This document shows positions 2,017 to 54,137 of a DNA stretch of 64,000 nucleotides, piece by piece (the stretch's first letter is position 1; each line of letters begins with the position of its first letter). The notes beneath the pieces are model-generated. The model ran no database searches. It saw only the letters and a list, made by a program, of their open reading frames with translations, and was not told the DNA's origin. Source of the stretch: Escherichia phage EO1. The stretch lies in sequence record OQ223305.1. One strand, 5' to 3'. Both the position numbers and the translations under genes were made by a program.

Positions 2017-3036
2017 ATGAAAACTCGTTCTCAAATTGAAGATATGGTTCGTAATGCCAGCTATACCCGTAATGTTATGACATTTTTGTGCCAAAATAAT
2101 TTAGACCCTGATAGAGTTAATAGTTCCATTCACTTTAAGTATATGAATAGCAGTGAATGGTTACGTCATTTTAGTAAAGCGGGATATATTACACAAATGA
2201 CTGCTCGTGAGCAGCTCACCGATTTCTGTAAAACTATTGATTATAAAAATCCTCTATTTGTTCAAGGCGTTGGTCAGAGTAAGGTTGATTTATCAACAGG
2301 ATTTTTTAATCCAAATCATTATCGTATTGAATGGAGATTTATTGCTCTATTCCGTAAACAATTAAAGCAAATTTTGTCTACTGCTAGTCGATTAAAAGGT
2401 TCTGACATTAACTTAAAGAACCTGAAATTCGATGGTTATACTCTTCAGATGGAAGTAAGACCATTAAAAGAAAATAATAGAACTGCACGAATTAGCTTTA
2501 AACCTAATACAAAAAATTCTCTTTCAATTTGTGAATGCCTTAAATCACAGTTGACAGAAGCATTTAAGTATATGGATGTTGTTGCCGCTGTTCATTCTAA
2601 GATTTTACCTCATTTTGAGCGAAATTGGGAACATACAACAACGTATGAACTTGATATGATCGTTTCATTTAAATACGATTTTTTGAGAAAGGATGAAGTC
2701 CCGCAAGAGAAAAAGCAGGAAGTACAAGATAACTTAAATTTATCTAATTGCTCATCAAACTATCCTAAATTTTGGATGTATAGCTCAGGTAATGAGGATG
2801 CATGGAAATTCAATAAAGTGAATTTTCTTCCTGTTGAAAATCCGAGTCTTAAACCTGTTGAAAAATGGCACGCGGATGCGATTGAGAAGTCTCTTAAGGC
2901 AGTAGATGATGAACTCGTTAAAGCGACCAATGAAGTGCTAGAAGCTGAAAAGATGCTAGAAAAAGCACAAGAAAAAGTCAAAAATCTTACGAAGCAACGT
3001 TCTAAACTGAACAGTGCACTAAATGCACTGAACTAG
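2017..3036 (+). CDS. hypothetical protein, member 2 of coiled-coil-tailed ORF array (339 aa)
   Basis: ATG 2017 follows TAAGGA; C-terminus LVKATNEVLEAEKMLEKAQEKVKNLTKQRSKLNSALNALN is strongly heptad/charged. Confidence 0.6.
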   Translation: MKTRSQIEDMVRNASYTRNVMTFLCQNNLDPDRVNSSIHFKYMNSSEWLRHFSKAGYITQMTAREQLTDFCKTIDYKNPLFVQGVGQSKVDLSTGFFNPNHYRIEWRFIALFRKQLKQILSTASRLKGSDINLKNLKFDGYTLQMEVRPLKENNRTARISFKPNTKNSLSICECLKSQLTEAFKYMDVVAAVHSKILPHFERNWEHTTTYELDMIVSFKYDFLRKDEVPQEKKQEVQDNLNLSNCSSNYPKFWMYSSGNEDAWKFNKVNFLPVENPSLKPVEKWHADAIEKSLKAVDDELVKATNEVLEAEKMLEKAQEKVKNLTKQRSKLNSALNALN

Positions 3037-3065
3037 TTTACTTTGCCACAAGGATGTGGTATAAT
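3036..3065 (+). promoter_or_regulatory. early promoter cassette (GTTTAC, CCACAAGGATGTGG hairpin, TATAAT)
   Basis: GTTTAC 3036-3041, inverted repeat CCACA/TGTGG 3046-3059, TATAAT 3060-3065; 18-bp spacer; drives ORF at 3094. Confidence 0.65.
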
Positions 3066-3093
3066 GTTCTTACTTTCTACTGAGGAGATTAAT

Positions 3094-4095
3094 ATGACTC
3101 GTAACGAATATATCAAATCATTCAATAGAGTTATTGATGATAAAGTTAAACCCATGTCTAGTCAGAACGCTGTTCTTTCTATTATCAATCAATGGCTCAG
3201 CAGTATTGATGCAAGTATTGTTTCTTCCAGTAAATTTATTCATGAAGTTCGTGAAATTTCTAGCCGTGTAGATAAAGATGATATTAAGATAATCTTTAAA
3301 GGGTCTCGTCTTCTTTCATATTTAGTTAATCGGGATATTCTTGGTAATTTTGGGAAAGAAATTAAACGAACCAAAGATGTAATAGGATACAATTGGTTCG
3401 GTGATGTTAATTCTTATCATCTTAATAATAAAGAAGACCCTGAGAATATTTTTACTCGTCGTTGGATTAGTAATTTCAGACTTTTTAAAGGACAAATTCT
3501 AAAATCAGCTTCTAAATTATGTTATGGCGATTATCGTCAAATTCATCCTTTGGCTTCTGATATGATTATCGTAAAAGAATATGAGCTTGATAAAAATAAA
3601 GTAGCTATTTTTGTGAATTACGAATTTTTTACACCAAACGCTAACCAAAAGAATATTAATAAATTTTTCTCAATTGCTAGCACTATAACTCATCAATTAG
3701 AGACGGCTTTGGATTGTATGGAAACTGTAAAAAGTATTCATACTTATCCTTTTAAGAATATGTGTGGTTGGGAAGGATACAAAATTGTAGTTAGTCTTCG
3801 TGAAGTGAAATGTGCTTATTCACCTACTGATAAAGAAATTTATCAACAAAAATGTGAGGAAATTGTGAATACTCCTAAAGAAGAAACTACCCTTGAGGAA
3901 CTAATGGAATGTCTTGATGATTCACCTGAACCGGTAGAAATTCGTCCAGAAGTTATTGCATTAGAAAAAGCTTATAAAGAAGTTCTAGAAATTTCTAATA
4001 AAGCGCAGAAAGAATACGAGCAGGCTAAAAAGATTTGGGAAGAATCTGTCAATCGCTTGGATCGTCTTGAACAAGCTTTACAGTTAATTAAGTAA
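3094..4095 (+). CDS. hypothetical protein, member 3 of coiled-coil-tailed ORF array (333 aa)
   Basis: ATG 3094 follows GAGGAG and its own promoter cassette (3036-3065); the six-frame start at 3043 is a TTG inside the promoter. C-terminal coiled coil (EKAYKEVLEISNKAQKEYEQAKKIWEESVNRLDRLEQALQLIK). Confidence 0.6.
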   Translation: MTRNEYIKSFNRVIDDKVKPMSSQNAVLSIINQWLSSIDASIVSSSKFIHEVREISSRVDKDDIKIIFKGSRLLSYLVNRDILGNFGKEIKRTKDVIGYNWFGDVNSYHLNNKEDPENIFTRRWISNFRLFKGQILKSASKLCYGDYRQIHPLASDMIIVKEYELDKNKVAIFVNYEFFTPNANQKNINKFFSIASTITHQLETALDCMETVKSIHTYPFKNMCGWEGYKIVVSLREVKCAYSPTDKEIYQQKCEEIVNTPKEETTLEELMECLDDSPEPVEIRPEVIALEKAYKEVLEISNKAQKEYEQAKKIWEESVNRLDRLEQALQLIK

Positions 4096-7811: not shown

Positions 7812-9625
7812 CAATTGAAAAAGAAATTGAAGGATTGATTCATAAAACTAATAAAGACCTTTTAAACGAGAATGCTAATAAAGATTCTCGTGTTTTTCCA
7901 ACTCAACGGGACCTTATGGCTGGTATTGTGTCTAAACACATTGCCAAAAATATGGTCCCGTCTTTTATTATGAAAGCGCATGAAAGCGGAATTATTCATT
8001 TCCACGATATTGATTATTCCCCTGCTCTTCCATTTACTAATTGTTGTTTAGTAGATTTAAAAGGAATGCTTGAGAACGGATTTAAGCTTGGTAATGCGCA
8101 GATTGAAACTCCTAAATCAATCGGTGTTGCTACTGCAATTATGGCACAAATTACTGCACAGGTTGCTTCCCATCAATATGGCGGAACGACTTTTGCGAAT
8201 GTAGATAAAGTACTTTCTCCTTATGTTAAACGCACCTATGCAAAACATATTGAAGATGCAGAAAAATGGCAAATCGCTGATGCGTTGAATTATGCTCAAT
8301 CTAAAACAGAAAAAGACGTATACGATGCATTCCAAGCTTATGAATATGAAGTAAATACTCTCTTTAGCTCAAACGGACAAACACCTTTTGTAACAATTAC
8401 ATTTGGTACAGGAACTGACTGGACTGAACGAATGATTCAGAAAGCAATTCTGAAAAATCGTATTAAAGGTCTTGGTCGTGATGGGATAACTCCTATTTTC
8501 CCTAAACTTGTTATGTTCGTTGAAGAAGGTGTTAATCTTTATAAAGACGACCCGAACTATGATATTAAGCAGCTTGCTTTAGAGTGCGCAAGCAAAAGAA
8601 TGTATCCTGACATCATTTCGGCTAAGAACAATAAAGCTATCACCGGCTCATCTATTCCTGTTTCTCCAATGGGTTGTCGTAGTTTCTTGAGCGTATGGAA
8701 AGATTCGACTGGCAATGAAATTCTTGATGGACGTAATAATCTCGGTGTTGTAACACTGAATCTTCCTCGTATCGCATTAGATTCTTATATTGGAACACAG
8801 TTCAATGAACAGAAATTTGTTGAATTATTCAATGAACGAATGGATTTATGTTTTGAAGCTTTGATGTGTAGAATTAGTTCCTTAAAAGGAGTTAAAGCGA
8901 CTGTTGCTCCTATTCTTTACCAAGAAGGTGCATTCGGGGTTCGTCTTAAACCTGATGACGATATAATTGAGTTATTTAAAAATGGCAGAAGTTCAGTGTC
9001 TCTAGGATACATTGGTATTCACGAATTAAATATTCTTGTCGGTCGTGATATTGGACAGGAAATTTTAACTAAAATGAATGCTCGTCTTAAACAGTGGACT
9101 GAAAGAACTGGGTTTGCTTTTAGCTTGTATTCTACTCCTGCTGAAAACCTTTGTTATCGCTTCTGTAAACTTGATACCGAAAAATATGGAAGTGTAAAGG
9201 ATGTTACCGATAAAGGTTGGTACACTAACAGTTTCCATGTTTCAGTAGAAGAAAATATTACTCCGTTTGAAAAGATTTCTCGCGAAGCACCATATCATTT
9301 CATTGCGACAGGTGGTCACATTTCTTATGTTGAACTTCCAGATATGAAAAATAACTTAAAAGGTCTTGAGGCTGTATGGGATTATGCTGCACAACATTTA
9401 GACTATTTTGGTGTTAATATGCCAGTAGATAAATGTTTTACATGTGGAAGTACCCATGAAATGACTCCTACTGAAAACGGATTTGTTTGTTCTATTTGTG
9501 GAGAAACTGATCCTAAAAAGATGAACACAATAAGAAGAACATGTGGTTATTTGGGAAATCCGAACGAACGCGGATTTAATCTCGGCAAAAATAAAGAAAT
9601 CATGCATAGGGTTAAACACCAATGA
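7808..9625 (+). CDS. nrdD: anaerobic ribonucleoside-triphosphate reductase NrdD (605 aa), uninterrupted
   Basis: 605 aa; C-terminal glycyl-radical region (RRTCGYLG) and Zn-ribbon cysteines (CFTCGS...CSICG); no intron or intron-encoded endonuclease ORF interrupts it. Confidence 0.9.
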   Translation: MTIEKEIEGLIHKTNKDLLNENANKDSRVFPTQRDLMAGIVSKHIAKNMVPSFIMKAHESGIIHFHDIDYSPALPFTNCCLVDLKGMLENGFKLGNAQIETPKSIGVATAIMAQITAQVASHQYGGTTFANVDKVLSPYVKRTYAKHIEDAEKWQIADALNYAQSKTEKDVYDAFQAYEYEVNTLFSSNGQTPFVTITFGTGTDWTERMIQKAILKNRIKGLGRDGITPIFPKLVMFVEEGVNLYKDDPNYDIKQLALECASKRMYPDIISAKNNKAITGSSIPVSPMGCRSFLSVWKDSTGNEILDGRNNLGVVTLNLPRIALDSYIGTQFNEQKFVELFNERMDLCFEALMCRISSLKGVKATVAPILYQEGAFGVRLKPDDDIIELFKNGRSSVSLGYIGIHELNILVGRDIGQEILTKMNARLKQWTERTGFAFSLYSTPAENLCYRFCKLDTEKYGSVKDVTDKGWYTNSFHVSVEENITPFEKISREAPYHFIATGGHISYVELPDMKNNLKGLEAVWDYAAQHLDYFGVNMPVDKCFTCGSTHEMTPTENGFVCSICGETDPKKMNTIRRTCGYLGNPNERGFNLGKNKEIMHRVKHQ

Positions 9626-10092
9626 ATTACGATAGATTTTATCCCTGTGATTTTGTGAATGGCCCTGGATGCAGGGTCGTTCTTTTCGTTACAGGTTGTT
9701 TGCATAAATGTGAAGGGTGTTATAATAAATCAACATGGAATGCTAGAAATGGTATTCCATTCACTGGAGAGACACTAGAGCAATTAATTGAATGTTTGAA
9801 TAATGATTATATAGAAGGATTAACTATAACTGGGGGTGACCCTCTTTATCCTGATAACAGAGACGTGATTCACTCTGTGGTTCAAACAGTAAAAAATCTT
9901 TATCCCAATAAAAGCATTTGGTTGTGGACAGGACATAAGTTTGAAGATATTAAACAACTAGAAATGCTTAAATATGTTGATGTTATTATTGATGGGAAGT
10001 ATGAAAAAAATCTTCCGACTAAAAAGCTGTGGCGAGGATCAGATAATCAGCGACTTTGGTCAAATACCGATGGGGTGTGGACACATGATTAA
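9622..10092 (+). CDS. nrdG: anaerobic RNR activating protein NrdG (radical SAM)
   Basis: 156 aa; cysteine cluster GCLHKCEGCYNK near the N-terminus; follows nrdD with overlapping stop/start. Confidence 0.85.
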   Translation: MNYDRFYPCDFVNGPGCRVVLFVTGCLHKCEGCYNKSTWNARNGIPFTGETLEQLIECLNNDYIEGLTITGGDPLYPDNRDVIHSVVQTVKNLYPNKSIWLWTGHKFEDIKQLEMLKYVDVIIDGKYEKNLPTKKLWRGSDNQRLWSNTDGVWTHD

Positions 10093-14390: not shown

Positions 14391-14435
14391 TTTATAAATT
14401 TTTGGTAAAATAAACCAAAACAAAGAGGATATTAA

Positions 14436-15638
14436 ATGAAAGTATGTATTTTTATGGCTCGAGGTCTTGAAGGTTGTGGTGTAACAAAATTCTCACTCGA
14501 GCAACGTGATTGGTTTATTAAAAATGGTCATAAAGTGACTTTGGTTTATGCTAAAGATAAATCATTTACTCGTAACTGTGCACATGATTATAAATCATTT
14601 TCAATTCCGGTTTTATTGGCAAAAGAATACGATAAAACACTTAAGCTGGTAAATGATTGTGATATTCTAATTATCAATTCAGTTCCTGCTACTTCAGTTG
14701 AAGAAGACACTATTAATAACTATAAAAAAATTATTGATAACATTAAACCTTCTGTTCGTGTTGTAGTTTATCAACATGACCATTCTTCTCTTTCTTTGCG
14801 CCGAAATTTGGGATTAGAAGAAACTGTTCGTCGAGCTGATGTTATTTTTAGCCATTCTGATAATGGTGATTTTAATAAAGTTCTGATGAAAGAGTGGTAT
14901 CCAGAAACTGTTTCTCTGTTTGATGATATTGAAGAAGCACCGACCGTATATAACTTTCAGCCTCCTATGGATATTGCGAAGGTTCGGTCAACTTACTGGA
15001 AAGATGTTTCTGAAATTAACATGAATATCAACCGTTGGATTGGTCGTACGACTACATGGAAAGGTTTTTATCAGATGTTTGATTTTCACGAAAAACATCT
15101 TAAACCTGCAGGACTAAGTACTATTATGGAAGGTCTGGAACGTTCTCCAGCATTCATTCCTATTAAAGAAAAAGGAATTCCATATGAGTATTATCGTCTT
15201 CATCAAGTAGACCAAATTAAAATTGCTCCTAATTTGCCAACGCAAATTCTCGACCGTTATGTAAATAGCGAAATGCTTGAGCGCATGAGTAAATCCGGAT
15301 TTGGTTATCAGCTGAGTAAATTAGATAAAAAATATCTACAGCGTTCTTTAGAATACACTCATCTCGAGCTTGGTGCATGCGGAACAATTCCAGTATTTTG
15401 GAAATCTACTGGCGAAAATTTAAAATTCCGTGTTGATAATACTCCTTTGACCTCGCATGATAGCGGTATCATTTGGTTTGATGAAAATGATATGGAATCA
15501 ACATTTGAACGTATTAAAGAACTGTCATCTGACCGAGCTCTTTATGACCGTGAACGTGAAAAAGCTTATGAATTTTTGTATCAGCATCAAGATTCAAGCT
15601 TCTGCTTTAAAGAACAGTTTGACATTATTACAAAATAA
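14436..15638 (+). CDS. a-gt: DNA alpha-glucosyltransferase (hmC glucosylation), 400 aa
   Basis: 400 aa; sequence closely resembles T4 alpha-gt as recalled (…CIFMARGLEGCGVTKFSLEQRDWFIKNGH…); flanked by terminators. Confidence 0.8.
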   Translation: MKVCIFMARGLEGCGVTKFSLEQRDWFIKNGHKVTLVYAKDKSFTRNCAHDYKSFSIPVLLAKEYDKTLKLVNDCDILIINSVPATSVEEDTINNYKKIIDNIKPSVRVVVYQHDHSSLSLRRNLGLEETVRRADVIFSHSDNGDFNKVLMKEWYPETVSLFDDIEEAPTVYNFQPPMDIAKVRSTYWKDVSEINMNINRWIGRTTTWKGFYQMFDFHEKHLKPAGLSTIMEGLERSPAFIPIKEKGIPYEYYRLHQVDQIKIAPNLPTQILDRYVNSEMLERMSKSGFGYQLSKLDKKYLQRSLEYTHLELGACGTIPVFWKSTGENLKFRVDNTPLTSHDSGIIWFDENDMESTFERIKELSSDRALYDREREKAYEFLYQHQDSSFCFKEQFDIITK

Positions 15639-15639
15639 A

Positions 15640-15656
15640 GGGCTTCGGCCCTTTAG
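15640..15656 (+). terminator. rho-independent terminator after alpha-gt
   Basis: GGGCTTCGGCCC 15640-15651 followed by TTT. Confidence 0.7.
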
Positions 15657-15677
15657 CTTTATACGGAGTTTGATATA

Positions 15678-15818
15678 ATGATATTTCTTGGATATGTGAT
15701 ACTTTTTCTTGCATTTTATCTATTCACTAGAGCATGTTGGATTGGGTTCTTTAGCACACCAGATGGATTTATTTCAATAATTTTATTTTGCATTTCAATG
15801 ACGGTTCTTGATATATGA
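15678..15818 (+). CDS. hypothetical small membrane peptide (46 aa)
   Basis: ATG 15678 is 9 nt after ACGGAG; hydrophobic; stop overlaps the homing endonuclease start. Confidence 0.3.
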   Translation: MIFLGYVILFLAFYLFTRACWIGFFSTPDGFISIILFCISMTVLDI

Positions 15819-16438
15819 AAAAATATATAACTTATTTAACAATATATAGTGGAGATAAACTTCCTCCTTTTTATATTGGATCTACGTCTTTAGATAGGCA
15901 TTTAGCTGGATATCATGGTTCAGTTTTATCTAAAAAGTATAAGAAAATTTATAATAAAGAGCTTTCAGATAATCCTCACTTATTTGATTCATGCATTTTA
16001 GCTGAATTTGATACGCGTGAAGAAGCTATTAAATGCGAGTTATATTATCAACGATTGCATGATGCAGTTAAAAATCCATTATTCTTTAATATGTCATATG
16101 CTGCTCCAGAAGGTTCATTTGGAAGAGATAATAAAGGACAAAATCATCCATTATATGGTTCTCATAATTGTAAAGGAAATATACATTCACATGATCCATT
16201 AACAGGAAAATCTGCCTTTTTGCCTTATATTCCAGAAGGTTATGTAAAAGGAAGGTCAAATAAATTTAAAGCTTCATCACATAATAAAGGTAAAAAATGG
16301 TATAATAACGGAGTTAAGCAAATGTTATGTCATGAACCTCCTGGTCCTGAATGGACAAAAGGAAAAATTAAAGAACTGGTTTCAAAAGCAGCTAAATTAG
16401 GATGGAAAAGACACCATGAAAATACTAAACTTGGGTGA
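15815..16438 (+). CDS. freestanding GIY-YIG homing endonuclease (Seg-like)
   Basis: N-terminal YITYLTIYSG...FYIGSTS (GIY-YIG), conserved R/E/N positions, C-terminal NHPLYG motif; very AT-rich; 3' end overlaps the gene 47 start. Confidence 0.7.
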   Translation: MKKYITYLTIYSGDKLPPFYIGSTSLDRHLAGYHGSVLSKKYKKIYNKELSDNPHLFDSCILAEFDTREEAIKCELYYQRLHDAVKNPLFFNMSYAAPEGSFGRDNKGQNHPLYGSHNCKGNIHSHDPLTGKSAFLPYIPEGYVKGRSNKFKASSHNKGKKWYNNGVKQMLCHEPPGPEWTKGKIKELVSKAAKLGWKRHHENTKLG

Positions 16439-17435
16439 TTGGCATTTAGGCGTTAAAGCTGATGATGAGTGGATTCGCGGTATTCAAATTGATGGAATTA
16501 AGCAAGCGATAGAATATTCTAAGAAAAATGGAATTACTGTATGGATTCAATATGGTGATATTTTTGATGTGCGAAAAGCAATCACACATAAAACTATGGA
16601 GTTTGCCCGTGAAATAGTTCAAATGCTTGATGACGCTGGAATCACATTACATACTATTGTAGGAAATCACGATCTCCACTACAAAAATGTAATGCATCCA
16701 AATGCCTCTACTGAGCTTTTGGCTAAATATCCTAATGTTAAAGTATATGATAAGCCTACTACAGTAGATTTTGACGGATGTTTGATTGATTTGATTCCTT
16801 GGATGTGCGAAGAAAATACTGGTGAAATTCTTGAGCACATCAAAACTTCATCTGCTTCTTTTTGTGTTGGTCACTGGGAACTGAATGGATTTTATTTTTA
16901 TAAAGGAATGAAATCTCACGGTCTTGAACCTGATTTCCTTAAGACTTATAAAGAAGTGTGGTCTGGTCACTTCCATACTATCTCTGAGGCTGCTAACGTT
17001 AGATATATTGGGACACCATGGACACTAACTGCAGGTGACGAGAATGACCCTCGTGGGTTCTGGATGTTTGATACAGAAACAGAACGAATGGAATTTATTC
17101 CAAACAATACTACCTGGCATCGTAGAATTCATTATCCATTTAAAGGAAAAATTGACTATAAAGATTTTACAAATCTATCAGTACGTGTTATAGTAACTGA
17201 AGTAGACAAAAATCTGACGAAGTTCGAATCTGAACTAGAAAAAGTTGTGCATTCATTACGAGTTGTGTCAAAGATTGATAACTCTGTCGAGTCAGATGAC
17301 AGTGAAGAAGTTGAAGTTCAATCTCTTCAGACATTGATGGAAGAATACATTAATGCAATTCCAGACATCACTGATTCTGACCGTGAAGCACTTATTCAAT
17401 ATGCAAATCAGCTATATGTAGAGGCAACACAATGA
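16416..17435 (+). CDS. 47: recombination endonuclease subunit gp47 (Mre11-like), 339 aa
   Basis: 339 aa; phosphoesterase motifs (GDWHLG, GNHD, GHWE); followed by gp46. Confidence 0.85.
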   Translation: MKILNLGDWHLGVKADDEWIRGIQIDGIKQAIEYSKKNGITVWIQYGDIFDVRKAITHKTMEFAREIVQMLDDAGITLHTIVGNHDLHYKNVMHPNASTELLAKYPNVKVYDKPTTVDFDGCLIDLIPWMCEENTGEILEHIKTSSASFCVGHWELNGFYFYKGMKSHGLEPDFLKTYKEVWSGHFHTISEAANVRYIGTPWTLTAGDENDPRGFWMFDTETERMEFIPNNTTWHRRIHYPFKGKIDYKDFTNLSVRVIVTEVDKNLTKFESELEKVVHSLRVVSKIDNSVESDDSEEVEVQSLQTLMEEYINAIPDITDSDREALIQYANQLYVEATQ

Positions 17436-26890: not shown

Positions 26891-27631
26891 ATGATTAGTG
26901 ACTCTATGACAGTTGAAGAAATCCGTCTTCATTTGGGGCTTGCATTAAAAGAAAAAGATTTCGTAGTTGATAAAACCGGTGTTAAAACTATTGAAATTAT
27001 TGGCGCATCATTTGTAGCAGATGAACCGTTTATTTTTGGCGCTCTTAATGATGAATACATTCAGCGTGAACTTGAATGGTATAAATCTAAGAGCTTGTTT
27101 GTTAAAGATATTCCAGGTGAAACACCAAAGATTTGGCAGCAGGTAGCATCTTCTAAAGGCGAAATTAACTCGAATTATGGTTGGGCTATTTGGTCAGAAG
27201 ATAACTATGCCCAGTATGATATGTGTTTAGCTGAACTTGGTCAAAATCCTGATTCTCGGCGTGGTATCATGATTTATACTCGTCCATCCATGCAATTTGA
27301 CTACAATAAAGATGGTATGTCAGATTTCATGTGTACTAATACAGTACAGTACCTGATTCGTGATAAGAAAGTCAATGCGGTTGTTAGCATGAGAAGCAAT
27401 GATTGCTGGGCAGGCTATCGTAATGATTATGCTTGGCAAAAATACGTACTAGATAAATTAGTATCTGATTTGAATGCAGGCGACCCATCGCGGCAATATA
27501 AAGCAGGTTCTATTATATGGAACGTTGGAAGTCTTCATGTGTACGAAAATCAGTTTTATTTAGTTGACCATTGGTGGAATACTGGCGAAACTCATATTGT
27601 GAAAAAAGACTATAAAGGTGAGTGGAAATGA
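26891..27631 (+). CDS. 42: dCMP hydroxymethylase gp42 (246 aa)
   Basis: 246 aa; thymidylate-synthase-like sequence matching T4 gp42 as recalled (MISDSMTVEEIRLHLGLALKEKDF…). Confidence 0.9.
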   Translation: MISDSMTVEEIRLHLGLALKEKDFVVDKTGVKTIEIIGASFVADEPFIFGALNDEYIQRELEWYKSKSLFVKDIPGETPKIWQQVASSKGEINSNYGWAIWSEDNYAQYDMCLAELGQNPDSRRGIMIYTRPSMQFDYNKDGMSDFMCTNTVQYLIRDKKVNAVVSMRSNDCWAGYRNDYAWQKYVLDKLVSDLNAGDPSRQYKAGSIIWNVGSLHVYENQFYLVDHWWNTGETHIVKKDYKGEWK

Positions 27632-28470
27632 TTCAATTCGTAATTCCAAGTTATCAGCGTGTCGGGGCAGTTTCTGCCCTTGATATGTTTCCGACTAATT
27701 ATGAACCCCATATTGTAGTGCGTGAACATGAAGAAAAAGCTTATTATGATGCCTATGGGTCTAGAGCTAAAATTATAACTATTCCTGACGATGTAAATGG
27801 AATTGCTGGTACTCGTAAAGCAATTACTGATATGTATGCAGGTCAACGAATCTGGATGATTGACGATGATACTACTATTCGTATGAGTTCAATGCGAAAA
27901 AGAGATGACCGTCGTTGTGTAGATAAAGTCAATCAATTAACCCGTGAACAGTTCTATGAATTGATTCAATACGTCGAAGATGCCATGGATTGCGGGTATT
28001 ATCATGGCCATGCTCGTCTACCTATTTTTAAAATTACTTCATCTTGGGGTAATTATCGTGAAAATTCATATGGATTCACGAATACATGGTATGACCTCGG
28101 AAAACTTACGACAGAACAAATTGGGTATGGAAAAATTGATTTATGCGAAGATATGTATGCATTTCTCAATTTAATTAATCAAGGTTATCCGCATTTGGCC
28201 TTGTTCAAATATCTGGTTGTATCTGGAAAAGCACAAGCTCCTGGCGGGTGTAGTTCAATTCGTAGTAATTCTAAACATAATAGAGCGCTTGAGCAAATCA
28301 ATAGAGAGTTTCCAGAGCAAGCTCGTTGGAAAACGTCGAATATTGAAAAACGAAAATCGTTGGGTGAAGAAGACGAGCCATTAAAGGTTCTTCGTATGTG
28401 TGTTTCGCGCAAAGAAAAATCAGAAGCATTTCATAAGTTTAATGCTATTCATCCGATAGCAGTTGATTAA
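27628..28470 (+). CDS. glycosyltransferase with DxD (GT-A-like) motif at the beta-gt locus; possible beta-alpha-glucosyl transferase
   Basis: ATG 27628 overlaps the gp42 stop; motif IWMIDDDTTI; sequence does not resemble T4 beta-gt as recalled. Confidence 0.55.
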   Translation: MIQFVIPSYQRVGAVSALDMFPTNYEPHIVVREHEEKAYYDAYGSRAKIITIPDDVNGIAGTRKAITDMYAGQRIWMIDDDTTIRMSSMRKRDDRRCVDKVNQLTREQFYELIQYVEDAMDCGYYHGHARLPIFKITSSWGNYRENSYGFTNTWYDLGKLTTEQIGYGKIDLCEDMYAFLNLINQGYPHLALFKYLVVSGKAQAPGGCSSIRSNSKHNRALEQINREFPEQARWKTSNIEKRKSLGEEDEPLKVLRMCVSRKEKSEAFHKFNAIHPIAVD

Positions 28471-34448: not shown

Positions 34449-34967
34449 ATGCCACATTTCAACGAATGTAGTCAACTGATCGAAGGCGCTGATAAAGCTC
34501 AAAATGAATATTGGGATATTCTCGGTGATGAAAAAGACCCGCTGCAGGTAATGCTTGACATGCAGAAATCTCTGCAAATTCGTTTAGCTAAAGATAAACC
34601 TGAATATAATCGTCATCCTGATGACTTGGCTACTGCCGGTGAAGTTGTTGATTGGTTGCGTAATCAGAAAGATTATATTGACGATGAATTCCGTGAACTT
34701 CTGACTTCTCTTGGTGGTATGAGTAATGGTGAAAAAGACGCATCTGCTGTATGGAAACCTTGGAAGTCGCAGCATGGTGAGCGTCGTGAAACTCTGATTA
34801 CTGATTTGTCTCCGCAAGACCAGTTAGAAATTAAATTTGAAATGATTGATATTCTTCATTTCGTTCTGAATATGTTCCAGGGTCTTGGTCTTACAGCTGA
34901 AGAAATCTTTAAACTTTATTACCTGAAAAATGCTGAAAATTTCGCACGTCAGGACCGAGGTTATTAA
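34449..34967 (+). CDS. 56: dCTPase/dUTPase gp56 (MazG-like), 172 aa
   Basis: 172 aa; position after 61 and a MotA-box promoter upstream. Confidence 0.7.
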   Translation: MPHFNECSQLIEGADKAQNEYWDILGDEKDPLQVMLDMQKSLQIRLAKDKPEYNRHPDDLATAGEVVDWLRNQKDYIDDEFRELLTSLGGMSNGEKDASAVWKPWKSQHGERRETLITDLSPQDQLEIKFEMIDILHFVLNMFQGLGLTAEEIFKLYYLKNAENFARQDRGY

Positions 34968-35107
34968 TGTCTCGTTTAAATAAACGTCAACTCAAAAAGT
35001 TGAATAAGAAAAGGGCGAAAGCCCTTACTGCTTTATTACGTAATGAAATAACTAAAGAAATAGACCAAGAGATTATTGAACAACTCTGGAAAGCCGCTAA
35101 ATTGTAA
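34967..35107 (+). CDS. hypothetical basic peptide (46 aa); may be non-coding
   Basis: ORF overlapping the gp56 stop; contains GGGCGAAAGCCC hairpin at 35013-35024. Confidence 0.25.
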   Translation: MSRLNKRQLKKLNKKRAKALTALLRNEITKEIDQEIIEQLWKAAKL

Positions 35108-35109
35108 GT

Positions 35110-35117
35110 TATAAATA
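35110..35117 (+). promoter_or_regulatory. late promoter (TATAAATA) for soc
   Basis: Exact TATAAATA 32 nt upstream of the soc ATG. Confidence 0.7.
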
Positions 35118-46254: not shown

Positions 46255-46305
46255 GCTTTATGATTACCGGAGTATAATATTCCCGAAACCAAACGAGGAT
46301 AAGTG

Positions 46306-48123
46306 ATGATTAAGAATGAAATTAAAATTCTGAGCGATATTGAACATATCAAAAAGCGTAGTGGCATGTACATTGGCTCTTCTGCTAATGAAATGCATGA
46401 GCGCTTTCTGTTTGGTAAATGGGAAAGTGTTCAGTATGTACCTGGTCTTGTTAAGCTTATTGATGAAATTATCGATAACTCAGTCGATGAAGGTATTCGT
46501 ACTAAGTTTAAATTCGCGAATAAAATTAATGTTACCATTAAAAATAATCAGGTAACAGTTGAAGATAACGGTCGTGGTATTCCACAAGCGATGGTTAAAA
46601 CACCTACCGGTGAAGAAATTCCTGGTCCAGTTGCTGCTTGGACTATTCCAAAAGCGGGTGGTAACTTTGGTGATGATAAAGAACGTGTCACCGGTGGTAT
46701 GAATGGTGTTGGTTCTAGTTTAACTAACATTTTTTCTGTGATGTTTGTCGGTGAAACTGGCGATGGTCAAAATAATATTGTAGTTCGTTGTTCAAATGGT
46801 ATGGAAAATAAATCCTGGGAAACTATTCCTGGAAAATGGAAAGGAACTCGTGTTACTTTCATTCCTGATTTTATGTCATTTGAAACTAATGAGCTGTCCC
46901 AGGTTTATCTTGACATTACACTGGATCGTCTCCAGACACTTGCTGTCGTTTATCCTGATATTCAATTTACCTTTAATGGTAAAAAGGTTCAGGGCAATTT
47001 TAAGAAATATGCACGACAGTATGATGAACATGCTATCGTTCAAGAACAAGAAAATTGTTCTATTGCGGTTGGTCGTTCACCGGATGGATTTCGTCAATTA
47101 ACTTACGTGAATAACATTCACACTAAGAATGGTGGTCATCACATTGATTGTGTTATGGATGATATTTGTGAAGACCTTATTCCACAAATCAAACGTAAAT
47201 TCAAAATTGATGTAACTAAAGCACGCGTTAAAGAATGTTTGACTATCGTTATGTTTGTTCGTGATATGAAAAACATGCGATTTGATTCTCAAACTAAAGA
47301 GCGTTTGACTTCTCCATTTGGCGAAATTCGTAGTCATATTCAACTTGATGCTAAAAAGATTTCACGCGCTATTCTAAATAATGAAGCAATTTTAATGCCG
47401 ATTATTGAAGCTGCGTTGGCTCGTAAATTGGCGGCAGAAAAAGCAGCAGAAACTAAAGCAGCTAAAAAGGCTTCTAAAGCTAAGGTTCATAAACATATCA
47501 AAGCGAATCTCTGTGGTAAAGATGCTGACACTACTCTTTTCTTGACTGAGGGTGATTCTGCTATCGGATATCTTATTGATGTTCGTGATAAAGAACTTCA
47601 TGGTGGTTATCCATTGCGTGGTAAAGTTCTCAACAGTTGGGGTATGTCATATGCTGATATGCTTAAAAACAAAGAACTATTTGATATTTGCGCAATCACT
47701 GGATTAGTTCTTGGTGAAAAAGCTGAAAACTTGAATTATCATAATATTGCTATTATGACCGATGCTGACCATGATGGTTTAGGAAGCATTTATCCTTCTC
47801 TGCTCGGATTTTTTAGTAATTGGCCAGAATTGTTTGAGCAAGGACGAATTCGCTTTGTCAAAACTCCTGTAATCATCGCTCAGGTCGGTAAAAAACAAGA
47901 ATGGTTTTATACAGTCGCTGAATATGAGAGTGCTAAAGATGCTCTACCTAAACATAGCATCCGTTATATTAAAGGACTTGGCTCTTTGGAAAAATCTGAA
48001 TATCGTGAGATGATTCAAAATCCAGTATATGATGTTGTTAAACTTCCTGAGAACTGGAAAGAGCTTTTTGAAATGCTCATGGGAGATAATGCTGACCTTC
48101 GTAAAGAATGGATGAGCCAGTAG
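46306..48123 (+). CDS. 39: DNA topoisomerase II large (ATPase) subunit gp39, uninterrupted 605-aa form
   Basis: GHKL ATPase motifs (IDNSVDEG, GRGIP) and TOPRIM region (LTEGDSA) in one ORF; 605 aa, i.e. not split into 39 + 60. Confidence 0.9.
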   Translation: MIKNEIKILSDIEHIKKRSGMYIGSSANEMHERFLFGKWESVQYVPGLVKLIDEIIDNSVDEGIRTKFKFANKINVTIKNNQVTVEDNGRGIPQAMVKTPTGEEIPGPVAAWTIPKAGGNFGDDKERVTGGMNGVGSSLTNIFSVMFVGETGDGQNNIVVRCSNGMENKSWETIPGKWKGTRVTFIPDFMSFETNELSQVYLDITLDRLQTLAVVYPDIQFTFNGKKVQGNFKKYARQYDEHAIVQEQENCSIAVGRSPDGFRQLTYVNNIHTKNGGHHIDCVMDDICEDLIPQIKRKFKIDVTKARVKECLTIVMFVRDMKNMRFDSQTKERLTSPFGEIRSHIQLDAKKISRAILNNEAILMPIIEAALARKLAAEKAAETKAAKKASKAKVHKHIKANLCGKDADTTLFLTEGDSAIGYLIDVRDKELHGGYPLRGKVLNSWGMSYADMLKNKELFDICAITGLVLGEKAENLNYHNIAIMTDADHDGLGSIYPSLLGFFSNWPELFEQGRIRFVKTPVIIAQVGKKQEWFYTVAEYESAKDALPKHSIRYIKGLGSLEKSEYREMIQNPVYDVVKLPENWKELFEMLMGDNADLRKEWMSQ

Positions 48124-53978: not shown

Positions 53979-54137
53979 ATGAATATCGCAAAATTATTAG
54001 GAGTTATTTCATTTATTTGTTGGATAGTAGCATGTGTTTTAACTATCTGTATCGATGCTAGCAGTGTGTTTTCACAAGCTTTAGCCCAGGGTATGTGTGC
54101 ATATTTAACATTTGTGTTGTTATCTACTAATGATTAA
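53979..54137 (+). CDS. ac: Ac (acriflavine sensitivity) small membrane protein (52 aa)
   Basis: 52-aa hydrophobic ORF between stp and gene 52, as T4 ac. Confidence 0.5.
   Translation: MNIAKLLGVISFICWIVACVLTICIDASSVFSQALAQGMCAYLTFVLLSTND

Follow-up and report, generated by a model that had tools for sequence, protein, structure and literature searches.

A free-standing Seg-type endonuclease gene in Escherichia phage EO1, with the start of gene 47 as its predicted target

A 64,000-nucleotide stretch of the Escherichia phage EO1 genome (accession OQ223305.1, hereafter the window) carries an open reading frame (ORF) of 207 amino acids directly upstream of gene 47, the gene for a subunit of a recombination nuclease. 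The ORF begins with ATG and occupies positions 15815..16438 of the plus strand, stop codon included; an original prediction, made from the letters of the window, had proposed it at the same coordinates, and the ORF list bears this out. We think it quite probable that this is a free-standing homing endonuclease gene of the bacteriophage T4 Seg type and that it is aimed at the 5′ end of gene 47. To judge from its sequence the gene is intact and probably active. The assignment draws on PHROG, fold and profile matches, and the gene has what characterizes the Seg class, i.e. an independent ORF, a resemblance to Seg proteins that extends from the nuclease domain to the DNA-binding part, and a sporadic presence among related phages.

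The nuclease domain and the DNA-binding modules

The N-terminal residues 1-105 (15815..16129, plus strand) form a GIY-YIG catalytic domain. Its motif residues are Y7, Y20-I21-G22-S23, G32-Y33-x-G35-S36, R68, E75 and N92, and the GIY and YIG motifs themselves occur in a variant form (I5-T6-Y7 and Y20-I21-G22). E75 and N92 are kept in all 36 of the relatives that we collected, while Y7, Y20, I21 and G22 are found in 35 out of 35 alignable ones. Across the family Y7, Y20-I21-G22, Y33, G35, S39, E75 and N92 are invariant, and hhalign pairs E75 and N92 with the corresponding glutamate and asparagine of the T4 Seg proteins. On careful alignment the catalytic residues (Y7, Y20-I21-G22, E75 and N92) are all intact, and in this respect the earlier identification of a nuclease holds.

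Structural and profile comparisons lead to the same family of proteins. The catalytic domain has the fold known from I-TevI, UvrC and Eco29kI, in which helices flank a three-stranded sheet. An AlphaFold2 model built from the 36 relatives has a mean predicted local distance difference test (pLDDT) score of 83, with residues 1-90 scoring 93-98, and Foldseek matches this model to the catalytic domain of I-TevI with a probability of 0.99. The model has 38 matches at E ≤ 1e-3 in BFVD, a collection of predicted viral structures, and every one of these with a functional name is a GIY-YIG, Seg-like, homing or intron endonuclease. The family profile matches an alignment of T4 SegA-G and I-TevI at 97.6% (hhalign, E 4e-12). 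Among the PHROG families the best match is phrog_10820 (E 4e-94), which is labelled ‘HNH endonuclease’, a label that we return to below; phrog_314, ‘homing endonuclease’, is also matched (E 4.5e-18).

In the modelled architecture a flexible linker joins the GIY-YIG nuclease domain to a pair of small, putative DNA-binding modules that resemble those of the T4 proteins SegE and SegB. The linker (residues 106-120; 16130..16174, plus strand) lies in a region of low model confidence, with a pLDDT of 52-55 over residues 101-120. It hosts the letters NHPLYG (residues 110-115), which the original prediction had read as a DNA-binding motif. The letters are there, but the protein has no match to Pfam NUMOD3 (PF07460) at E ≤ 1, and the putative DNA-binding part consists instead of the two SegE/SegB-type modules. 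NUMOD3 is matched by 17 of the 36 relatives, in which the first repeat starts at the position aligned to NHPLYG. All that the EO1 protein has of NUMOD3 is this N-x-P-x-(Y/F)-G start, within the low-pLDDT linker.

Module 1 (residues 121-147, GNIHSHDPLTGKSAFLPYIPEGYVKGR; 16175..16255, plus strand) is a putative DNA-binding unit with modelled strands at residues 123-126 and 133-136. It is a beta-hairpin followed by PxGYxKGR and aligns with the first module of SegE and with the C-terminal IPEGWFKGR of SegB. Module 2 (residues 159-184, GKKWYNNGVKQMLCHEPPGPEWTKGK; 16289..16366, plus strand) is a second copy of this unit, with modelled strands at residues 161-164 and 169-172; it aligns with SegE GTFWVNNGAINKLIQPDGIIPDGFIKGR and is kept in the full-length relatives from other genera. 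In the AlphaFold2 model both modules are a beta-hairpin followed by PxG(Y/W)xKG(R/K), and a terminal helix comes after them. A BLASTP comparison with SegE gives 28% identity over 193 collinear residues, including both C-terminal modules (E 2e-5). SegB, which ends in one such module, shares IPEG(W/Y)xKGR at its C-terminus.

The insertion site and its occupancy among T4 relatives

The ORF is preceded by a homologue of gene 47.1 (46 amino acids; 15678..15818, plus strand; phrog_6693), the product of which is 100% identical to T4 gp47.1. It is followed by gene 47 (339 amino acids; 16416..17435, plus strand; Pfam Metallophos), which encodes an SbcD/Mre11-type nuclease subunit and is the predicted target gene. 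The ORF had been placed between alpha-gt and gene 47. Gene 47 does adjoin it, but on the other side 47.1 intervenes as the direct neighbour of the ORF. The ORF is free-standing, as had been suggested; it lies between conserved genes and in their orientation (the strand of a-gt, 47.1, 47 and 46), and there is no intron. The 47.1 stop codon and the ATG of the endonuclease ORF overlap (ATATGA). The final 23 nucleotides of the ORF lie inside gene 47, an overlap that the original prediction had also described.

In T4, by contrast, it is 47.1 and gene 47 that overlap, stop codon on start codon, and no ORF separates them. Alignments with T4 and with phage SHFML-26 show an insert of exactly 601 bp that is bounded by two copies of a 7-nt direct repeat, ATGAAAA. 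The left copy (15815..15821, plus strand) is the start of the ORF and in T4 the start of gene 47, while the right copy (16416..16422, plus strand) is the start of gene 47 in EO1. The endonuclease gene has therefore taken over the start-codon context of T4 gene 47, and gene 47 now begins inside the 3′ end of the endonuclease gene. The insert measures exactly 601 nt in eight out of eight ORF-carrying Tequatrovirus loci examined.

We counted the occupied and the empty sites in the GenBank phage collection. The insert is found at 96% identity or more in 68 records, some of which are RefSeq/GenBank duplicates. Contiguous matches to a 161-nt filled junction are found in 68 records and contiguous matches to the T4-type empty junction in 452, i.e. 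the gene is carried by approximately 13% of close relatives, or about one in eight. These numbers (about 68 filled and 450 empty records, with T4, T2 and RB14 among the empty ones) agree with the variable presence among T-even phages that had been anticipated, and the comparison of this locus across T-even genomes finds that the ORF is not universal at the site. No classical T-even or RB phage is among the 60 carriers listed. One of the phages that carry the gene is the BASEL phage TadeuszReichstein. The ‘partial’ copies of KNP1 and KNP5 are in UNVERIFIED records and are not interpreted here. IMG/VR was also tried as a source of T4-like loci; a gp47 search gave 28 loci and a degenerate gene-47-start pattern gave just the same six contigs.

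For its expression the gene appears to rely on what is already in place at this locus. No match to the T4 late promoter (TATAAATA) or to the MotA-box consensus is found inside or just upstream of the ORF, and sigma-70-like matches are at background (5, versus 5.8±2.7 in shuffled sequence). Predicted RNA folding around the two start codons is no more stable than that of shuffled sequences (z-scores of +0.7 and +0.5), which gives no support for a hairpin that would sequester a ribosome-binding site. Likewise, there is no endonuclease-specific promoter or terminator between the hairpin that follows a-gt and gene 47. We infer that the endonuclease uses the 47.1-coupled translation start that gene 47 has in T4, and that the endonuclease and gene 47 would both ride the existing a-gt/47.1-47-46 transcription unit.

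Linked substitutions at the start of gene 47 and a model for homing

Four synonymous substitutions distinguish the start of gene 47 in EO1 from the empty-site allele. These fall in codons 3-6 (16424..16433, plus strand) and are 16424 T>A, 16425 T>C, 16430 T>C and 16433 A>G, or +9, +10, +15 and +18 in gene 47 numbering. We compared approximately 1.4 kb on each side of the site in eight carriers and 11 non-carriers. All eight carriers have the variant bases and ten of the 11 non-carriers have the T4-type bases, and within about ±1.4 kb these four positions are the only fixed differences between carriers and non-carriers. Elsewhere the flanks are as mosaic in carriers as they are in non-carriers. 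A chimeric query, in which the end of the ORF is joined to a T4-type gene 47 start, matches the other carriers at exactly 97.5%, which equals four mismatches, in the best 25 matches with the exception of one record.

These four substitutions are a candidate for a polymorphism that makes the target site immune; they may instead mark where the mobile cassette ends on its right. The predicted target lies at or near the 47.1/47 junction and in the opening ~20 bp of gene 47, immediately ahead of codons 7-10, which encode phosphoesterase motif I (GDWH). A cleavage site somewhere in the alpha-gt/47 region had been predicted from the outset; the comparative data fit this, and narrow the candidate region to these ~20 bp at the start of gene 47. 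On one strand, three of the substitutions each introduce an additional C. Cytosine in T-even phages is glucosyl-hydroxymethylcytosine. As a speculation, the added glucosyl-hydroxymethylcytosine could sterically block the binding of the endonuclease.

The T4-type sequence of this region is also found in more distant phages. Three loci (L014, L015 and L016) encode a gp47 that is 72-73% identical to that of EO1, yet the first 29 nt of their gene 47 match the T4 type exactly (positions 3001-3029 of each). Conservation of the putative target sequence thus extends far outside the genus.

We propose the following model. In a mixed infection the enzyme would cut the allele that lacks the endonuclease gene, either at the junction of 47.1 and 47 (GATATATGAAAATTTTAAATTTAGGTGATTGG) or close to it. 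Resection of the break would be followed by repair from the carrier genome, and in the process the endonuclease gene and the adjoining gene 47 sequence would be copied in. The carrier itself could be protected by the insertion, which would split the target site, by the four synonymous changes linked to it (gene 47 codons 3-6), which would alter the site, or by both together.

Relatives in other genera

At least five other T4-like groups have a gene for a full-length relative of the protein (50-76% identity) as the immediate upstream neighbour of gene 47. The groups are represented by Klebsiella phage SmallBear, Serratia phage LC53 (Winklervirus), where a 121-nt spacer separates the gene from gene 47, Aeromonas phage L9-6 (Biquartavirus), Erwinia phage FBB1 (Roskildevirus) and the QL01-like coliphages, with 47.1 replaced in the QL01-like phage. 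Close relatives of the QL01-like phages and of SmallBear do not have the gene. The upstream neighbour varies across genera, and the start of gene 47 is the only constant neighbour.

Between related carriers and non-carriers, gene 47 also becomes more similar with distance from the endonuclease. For successive 100-nt blocks leading away from the endonuclease gene, the identity between SmallBear and locus L018 is 75, 79, 84, 88 and 95%, and that between loci L024 and L021 is 74, 85, 87, 91 and 95%. When two non-carriers are compared the identity is flat at about 95%. Such a rise is the trace expected if a break close to the 5′ end of gene 47 had led to co-conversion.

A further QL01-like locus (L027) hosts a 251-amino acid version of the endonuclease (2249-3004) in which the C-terminal 70 residues are unrelated. 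In the gene 47 of this locus (3001-3400) the first ~300 nt are 55-72% identical to close relatives and the remainder is 90-97% identical; the 5′ third of the gene looks imported from a foreign source.

Evidence against the proposed function and target

A number of observations weigh against an active endonuclease that is aimed at the start of gene 47. At the protein level, the match to Pfam PF01541 (GIY-YIG) has 21.4 bits, which is below the gathering cut-off of 22.6 bits (E 3e-4), and only 13 of the 36 relatives match PF01541 at E ≤ 0.01. PDB sequence searches, both with the protein and with the 36-sequence profile, returned no GIY-YIG entry, which only the fold comparison gave, and an NCBIfam search of the protein returned no meaningful match. 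The ‘clear’ GIY-YIG domain of the original prediction is therefore an overstatement at the level of sequence, where Pfam is sub-threshold and the PDB searches are empty, but structure and profile comparisons confirm the domain itself. The family is a divergent branch of GIY-YIG proteins, for which the profile–profile and fold evidence makes up for the Pfam shortfall. There is also no invariant match for the I-TevI arginine R27; position 28, an R in the EO1 protein, is K/R in 30 of the 36 relatives and N/E in the other 6. However, T4 SegA-E, which are experimentally active, have GY(M/L)GSG in that region, share the GYxGS motif and are likewise without an alignable arginine. A missing R27 counterpart need not for this reason point to inactivity; candidates for a residue in the place of R27 are R28, K40/K41 and R68.

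At the target, about eight empty-site records (SHFML-26 and about seven more, UGKSEcP1 being another phage of this type) have the variant bases, and RB14, where the site is also empty, has just the +10 change. Insert and substitutions can therefore occur apart. A deletion from one ATGAAAA repeat to the other would produce the SHFML-26-type structure, empty with variant bases. Conversely, in ERS-1 the ORF is present and each of the four positions has the T4-type base. The carrier copies are 96-100% identical, and the association between insert and substitutions could partly reflect one recent spread. Finally, the characterised free-standing endonucleases of T4 cut hundreds to thousands of bp from their own genes (PMC2988022), and relative to these a cleavage site next to the insertion would be atypical.

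Two of these records deserve a comment. The ERS-1 record (L056, PP337211.1; aligned to 15640-16690) is the only one that joins the ORF to T4-type bases. It has four single-base indels in the ORF and further indels outside it, which may be sequencing errors, is marked UNVERIFIED_ORG, and we count it neither for nor against the immunity idea. The SHFML-26 locus (L036) has another annotated ‘homing endonuclease’ between 46.1 and gene 46 (3464-4085), where other loci run straight to gene 46.

Alternative explanations

The alternative that survives best, which we regard as possible but rather unlikely, is an active Seg-type homing endonuclease with a more distant cleavage site, some hundreds of bp off, within gene 47, 47.1 or a-gt. 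In that case the substitutions would be donor flank only, and not a recognition or immunity site. Cleavage far from the endonuclease gene is what the known free-standing T4 endonucleases do (PMC2988022), and in other genera it is 300-400 bp of gene 47 beside the endonuclease that looks imported. The pairing of the ORF with T4-type bases in ERS-1 and the occurrence of the variant bases without the ORF would also be explained. However, within ±1.4 kb no further position separates carriers from non-carriers. A distal site would then be the same in carrier and target, and this would leave the carrier unprotected unless self-cleavage is tolerated. That the start of gene 47 is the only constant neighbour across genera also speaks for a target close by.

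A second alternative is a stranded or decaying endonuclease gene, immobile and kept because the translation of gene 47 depends on its 3′ end. Gene 47 begins inside the ORF, so deletion of the ORF could harm an important gene. Furthermore, the carrier copies are nearly identical and damaged copies do exist: GEP001 has a stop at codon 183, and some database copies look frameshifted, with several records matching in 2-3 frameshifted pieces. Frameshifted copies are usual for elements of the homing-endonuclease kind. We consider decay distinctly improbable, in view of the pattern of polymorphism. The eight Tequatrovirus copies differ by 22 synonymous and 9 non-synonymous polymorphisms, with the GEP001 nonsense change among the latter, and the ratio of non-synonymous to synonymous substitution rates (dN/dS) is about 0.1-0.2, with values between genera of about 0.18-0.23. 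Purifying selection thus acts along the whole protein, and the residues of the catalytic motifs are all invariant. The insert is 96-100% identical while the flanks of the carriers are as mosaic as those of non-carriers, which argues for recent horizontal spread. The SHFML-26-type genomes also show that the locus works without the ORF.

A third possibility is a domesticated GIY-YIG protein with a role other than homing, e.g. as a DNA-binding regulator of the 47-46 operon or as a nuclease directed against competing phages or host DNA. There are precedents of a kind. I-TevI is also a transcriptional autorepressor (mentioned in PMC10448857), and SegB was recently tied to the amplification of anti-defence loci (PMC13096335). 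The EO1-type gene is however sporadic (13% of close relatives have it, and T4, T2 and RB14 do not), occupies one conserved site across genera and has imported flanks. This is the pattern of a selfish element and not of a gene that benefits its host, and we think domestication very improbable.

The idea that the protein is an HNH endonuclease, as many RefSeq records and the name of phrog_10820 have it, can be rejected with near certainty: no HNH family of Pfam, and with it no HNH or beta-beta-alpha-metal motif, matches the protein at E ≤ 1, its fold and motifs are GIY-YIG, and GenBank depositors who looked more closely named relatives ‘GIY-YIG homing endonuclease’. With no HNH family matching the protein, the RefSeq label is wrong. 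RefSeq also uses ‘HNH endonuclease’ for relatives in other genera, which makes this a systematic annotation error, and many other records name the EO1-type gene ‘hypothetical protein’.

Comparison with known endonucleases

We return to the Seg-type homing endonuclease, and to the well-studied proteins that it most resembles. In architecture SegE comes closest, in the N-terminal domain the nearest T4 protein is SegG, and among solved structures it is I-TevI. SegE (205 amino acids, against 207 for the EO1 protein) is encoded between inh and uvsW, and both proteins have a GIY-YIG domain (YIG…GYxGS…E…N) followed by two ‘WxNNG…PxG(F/W/Y)xKGR’ modules in the same order. Both genes also lie immediately upstream of a conserved DNA-metabolism gene; segE is directly upstream of its target gene, uvsW (PMC2988022). 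In other respects the two differ. They share only the 28% identity given above, and the first motif of the EO1 protein reads ‘(I/V)TYLTIY…LPPFYIGS’. The EO1 gene lies at gene 47, its presumed target, and not at uvsW, its 3′ end overlaps the downstream gene, and it is absent from T4.

SegG (gp32.1), which cuts gene 32 of T2 and causes marker exclusion, is the best T4 match of the N-terminal domain (27% identity over 109 amino acids) and the only phmmer match. SegG and the EO1 protein have a ‘PPYYYIGS’-type variant of the YIG motif in common, and both genes are free-standing and beside an essential replication or recombination gene. The C-terminal regions of the two are unrelated. The SegG cleavage site lies several hundred bp away from the segG gene (PMC2988022), whereas the sole candidate immunity polymorphism of EO1 abuts the insertion.

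With I-TevI (structures 1LN0 and 1MK0) the EO1 protein shares an equivalent of the catalytic E75, a structural asparagine (N90, against N92 in EO1) and the layout of nuclease, linker and DNA-binding part. Unlike I-TevI, the EO1 gene is not intron-encoded and its product has no zinc finger, NUMOD3 helix or helix-turn-helix; the identity between the two is ~20%. A further group of GIY-YIG endonucleases, from other T4-like phages such as Yersinia phage TG1, HX01, Bp7 and IME281, has the N-terminal 115 residues in common with the EO1 protein at 45-70% identity. From this similarity, the EO1 protein and these NUMOD3-containing relatives clearly form one catalytic-domain lineage. The TG1/HX01/Bp7/IME281-type relatives have NUMOD3 repeats instead of the SegE-type modules and reside at other genomic sites. 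A common nuclease domain with different C-termini and different sites is the pattern expected of domain shuffling that retargets one nuclease.

Genomic context

The base composition of the ORF is low in GC. The original prediction had called this stretch markedly AT-rich; the AT-richness is real but modest, with a GC content of 30.1% against a window median of 34.8%, which places the ORF at the 3.9th percentile of the 624-nt windows across the stretch. The GC content at third codon positions is 12.6%, versus 22-26% in the adjoining genes.

Further upstream, a-gt (14436..15638, plus strand; Pfam AGT, E 8e-237) is followed by a GC-rich hairpin (15636..15655, strand not assigned), the same sequence being found in T4. 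The a-gt gene occurs as two clearly different alleles, with ~130-145 differences per 1.38 kb. One is common to T4, one IMG/VR contig and Yersinia phage fPS-90, and the other is found in the window and in most others (the left flanks of L001, L003 and L045 were compared). The alleles are sorted independently of the presence of the endonuclease, which indicates free recombination to the left of the insert.

The window as a whole is collinear with T4 positions 54005 to 1 (blastn). It lacks every mobile endonuclease that T4 has there. The T4 nrdD intron with I-TevII, mobC, mobB and segF correspond to clean blastn gaps at 8343-8346, 9622-9642, 14420-14445 and 34967-35110. A tblastn search of the whole window gave no GIY-YIG homologue other than the gene-47 endonuclease. 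Where T4 has b-gt and segA, between gene 42 and uvsX, the window has an ORF of 282 amino acids (27622-28470, plus strand) that matches the Pfam family TAGT (TET-associated glycosyltransferase; E 1.7e-9), and which we take to resemble the second glucosyltransferase of the T2/T6 type. At 46303-48123 (plus strand) one ORF of 606 amino acids spans what T4 divides into genes 39 and 60. The window has no counterpart of the T4 segment with 60.1, the remnant of mobA and the 50 nt of gene 60 that are bypassed in translation, and the gene for the large topoisomerase subunit therefore appears to be uninterrupted.

Significance

In the literature, subscription journals aside, no endonuclease gene at 47.1/47 was found to have been described or named, and the table of endonuclease genes in a review of T4 lists none there (PMC2988022). 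The EO1 gene is a newly recognised Seg-type gene of a familiar class and not a new kind of element, and it leaves the picture of homing endonucleases unchanged. What it does is correct a widespread annotation error and add a Seg-type endonuclease with a clearly predicted target to the T4 homing system.

A broader and rather less likely proposal, which we put forward tentatively, is that this is a long-lived endonuclease lineage, specialised on the motif-I end of gene 47, that has moved among at least six T4-like groups, with immunity by means of a few synonymous changes and with glucosyl-hydroxymethylcytosine as a shield. If true, DNA hypermodification would itself shield the target site. The SHFML-26-type alleles (on this view empty but resistant) and the one-step intermediate of RB14 would record an arms race between endonuclease and target. 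The target, gene 47, would moreover encode part of the exonuclease that is thought to process the very breaks that drive homing.

For phage engineering and the design of phage cocktails, this is a locus where co-infecting T4-like phages would be predicted to exchange DNA non-reciprocally. Natural genomes supply four configurations of the site: filled with variant bases (~68), empty with T4-type bases (~440), empty with variant bases (~8) and the one-substitution RB14. With these, recognition, immunity, marker exclusion at gene 47 and protection by modified cytosine are directly testable. This is ordinary biology for T4-like phages, yet it is a clean natural experiment.

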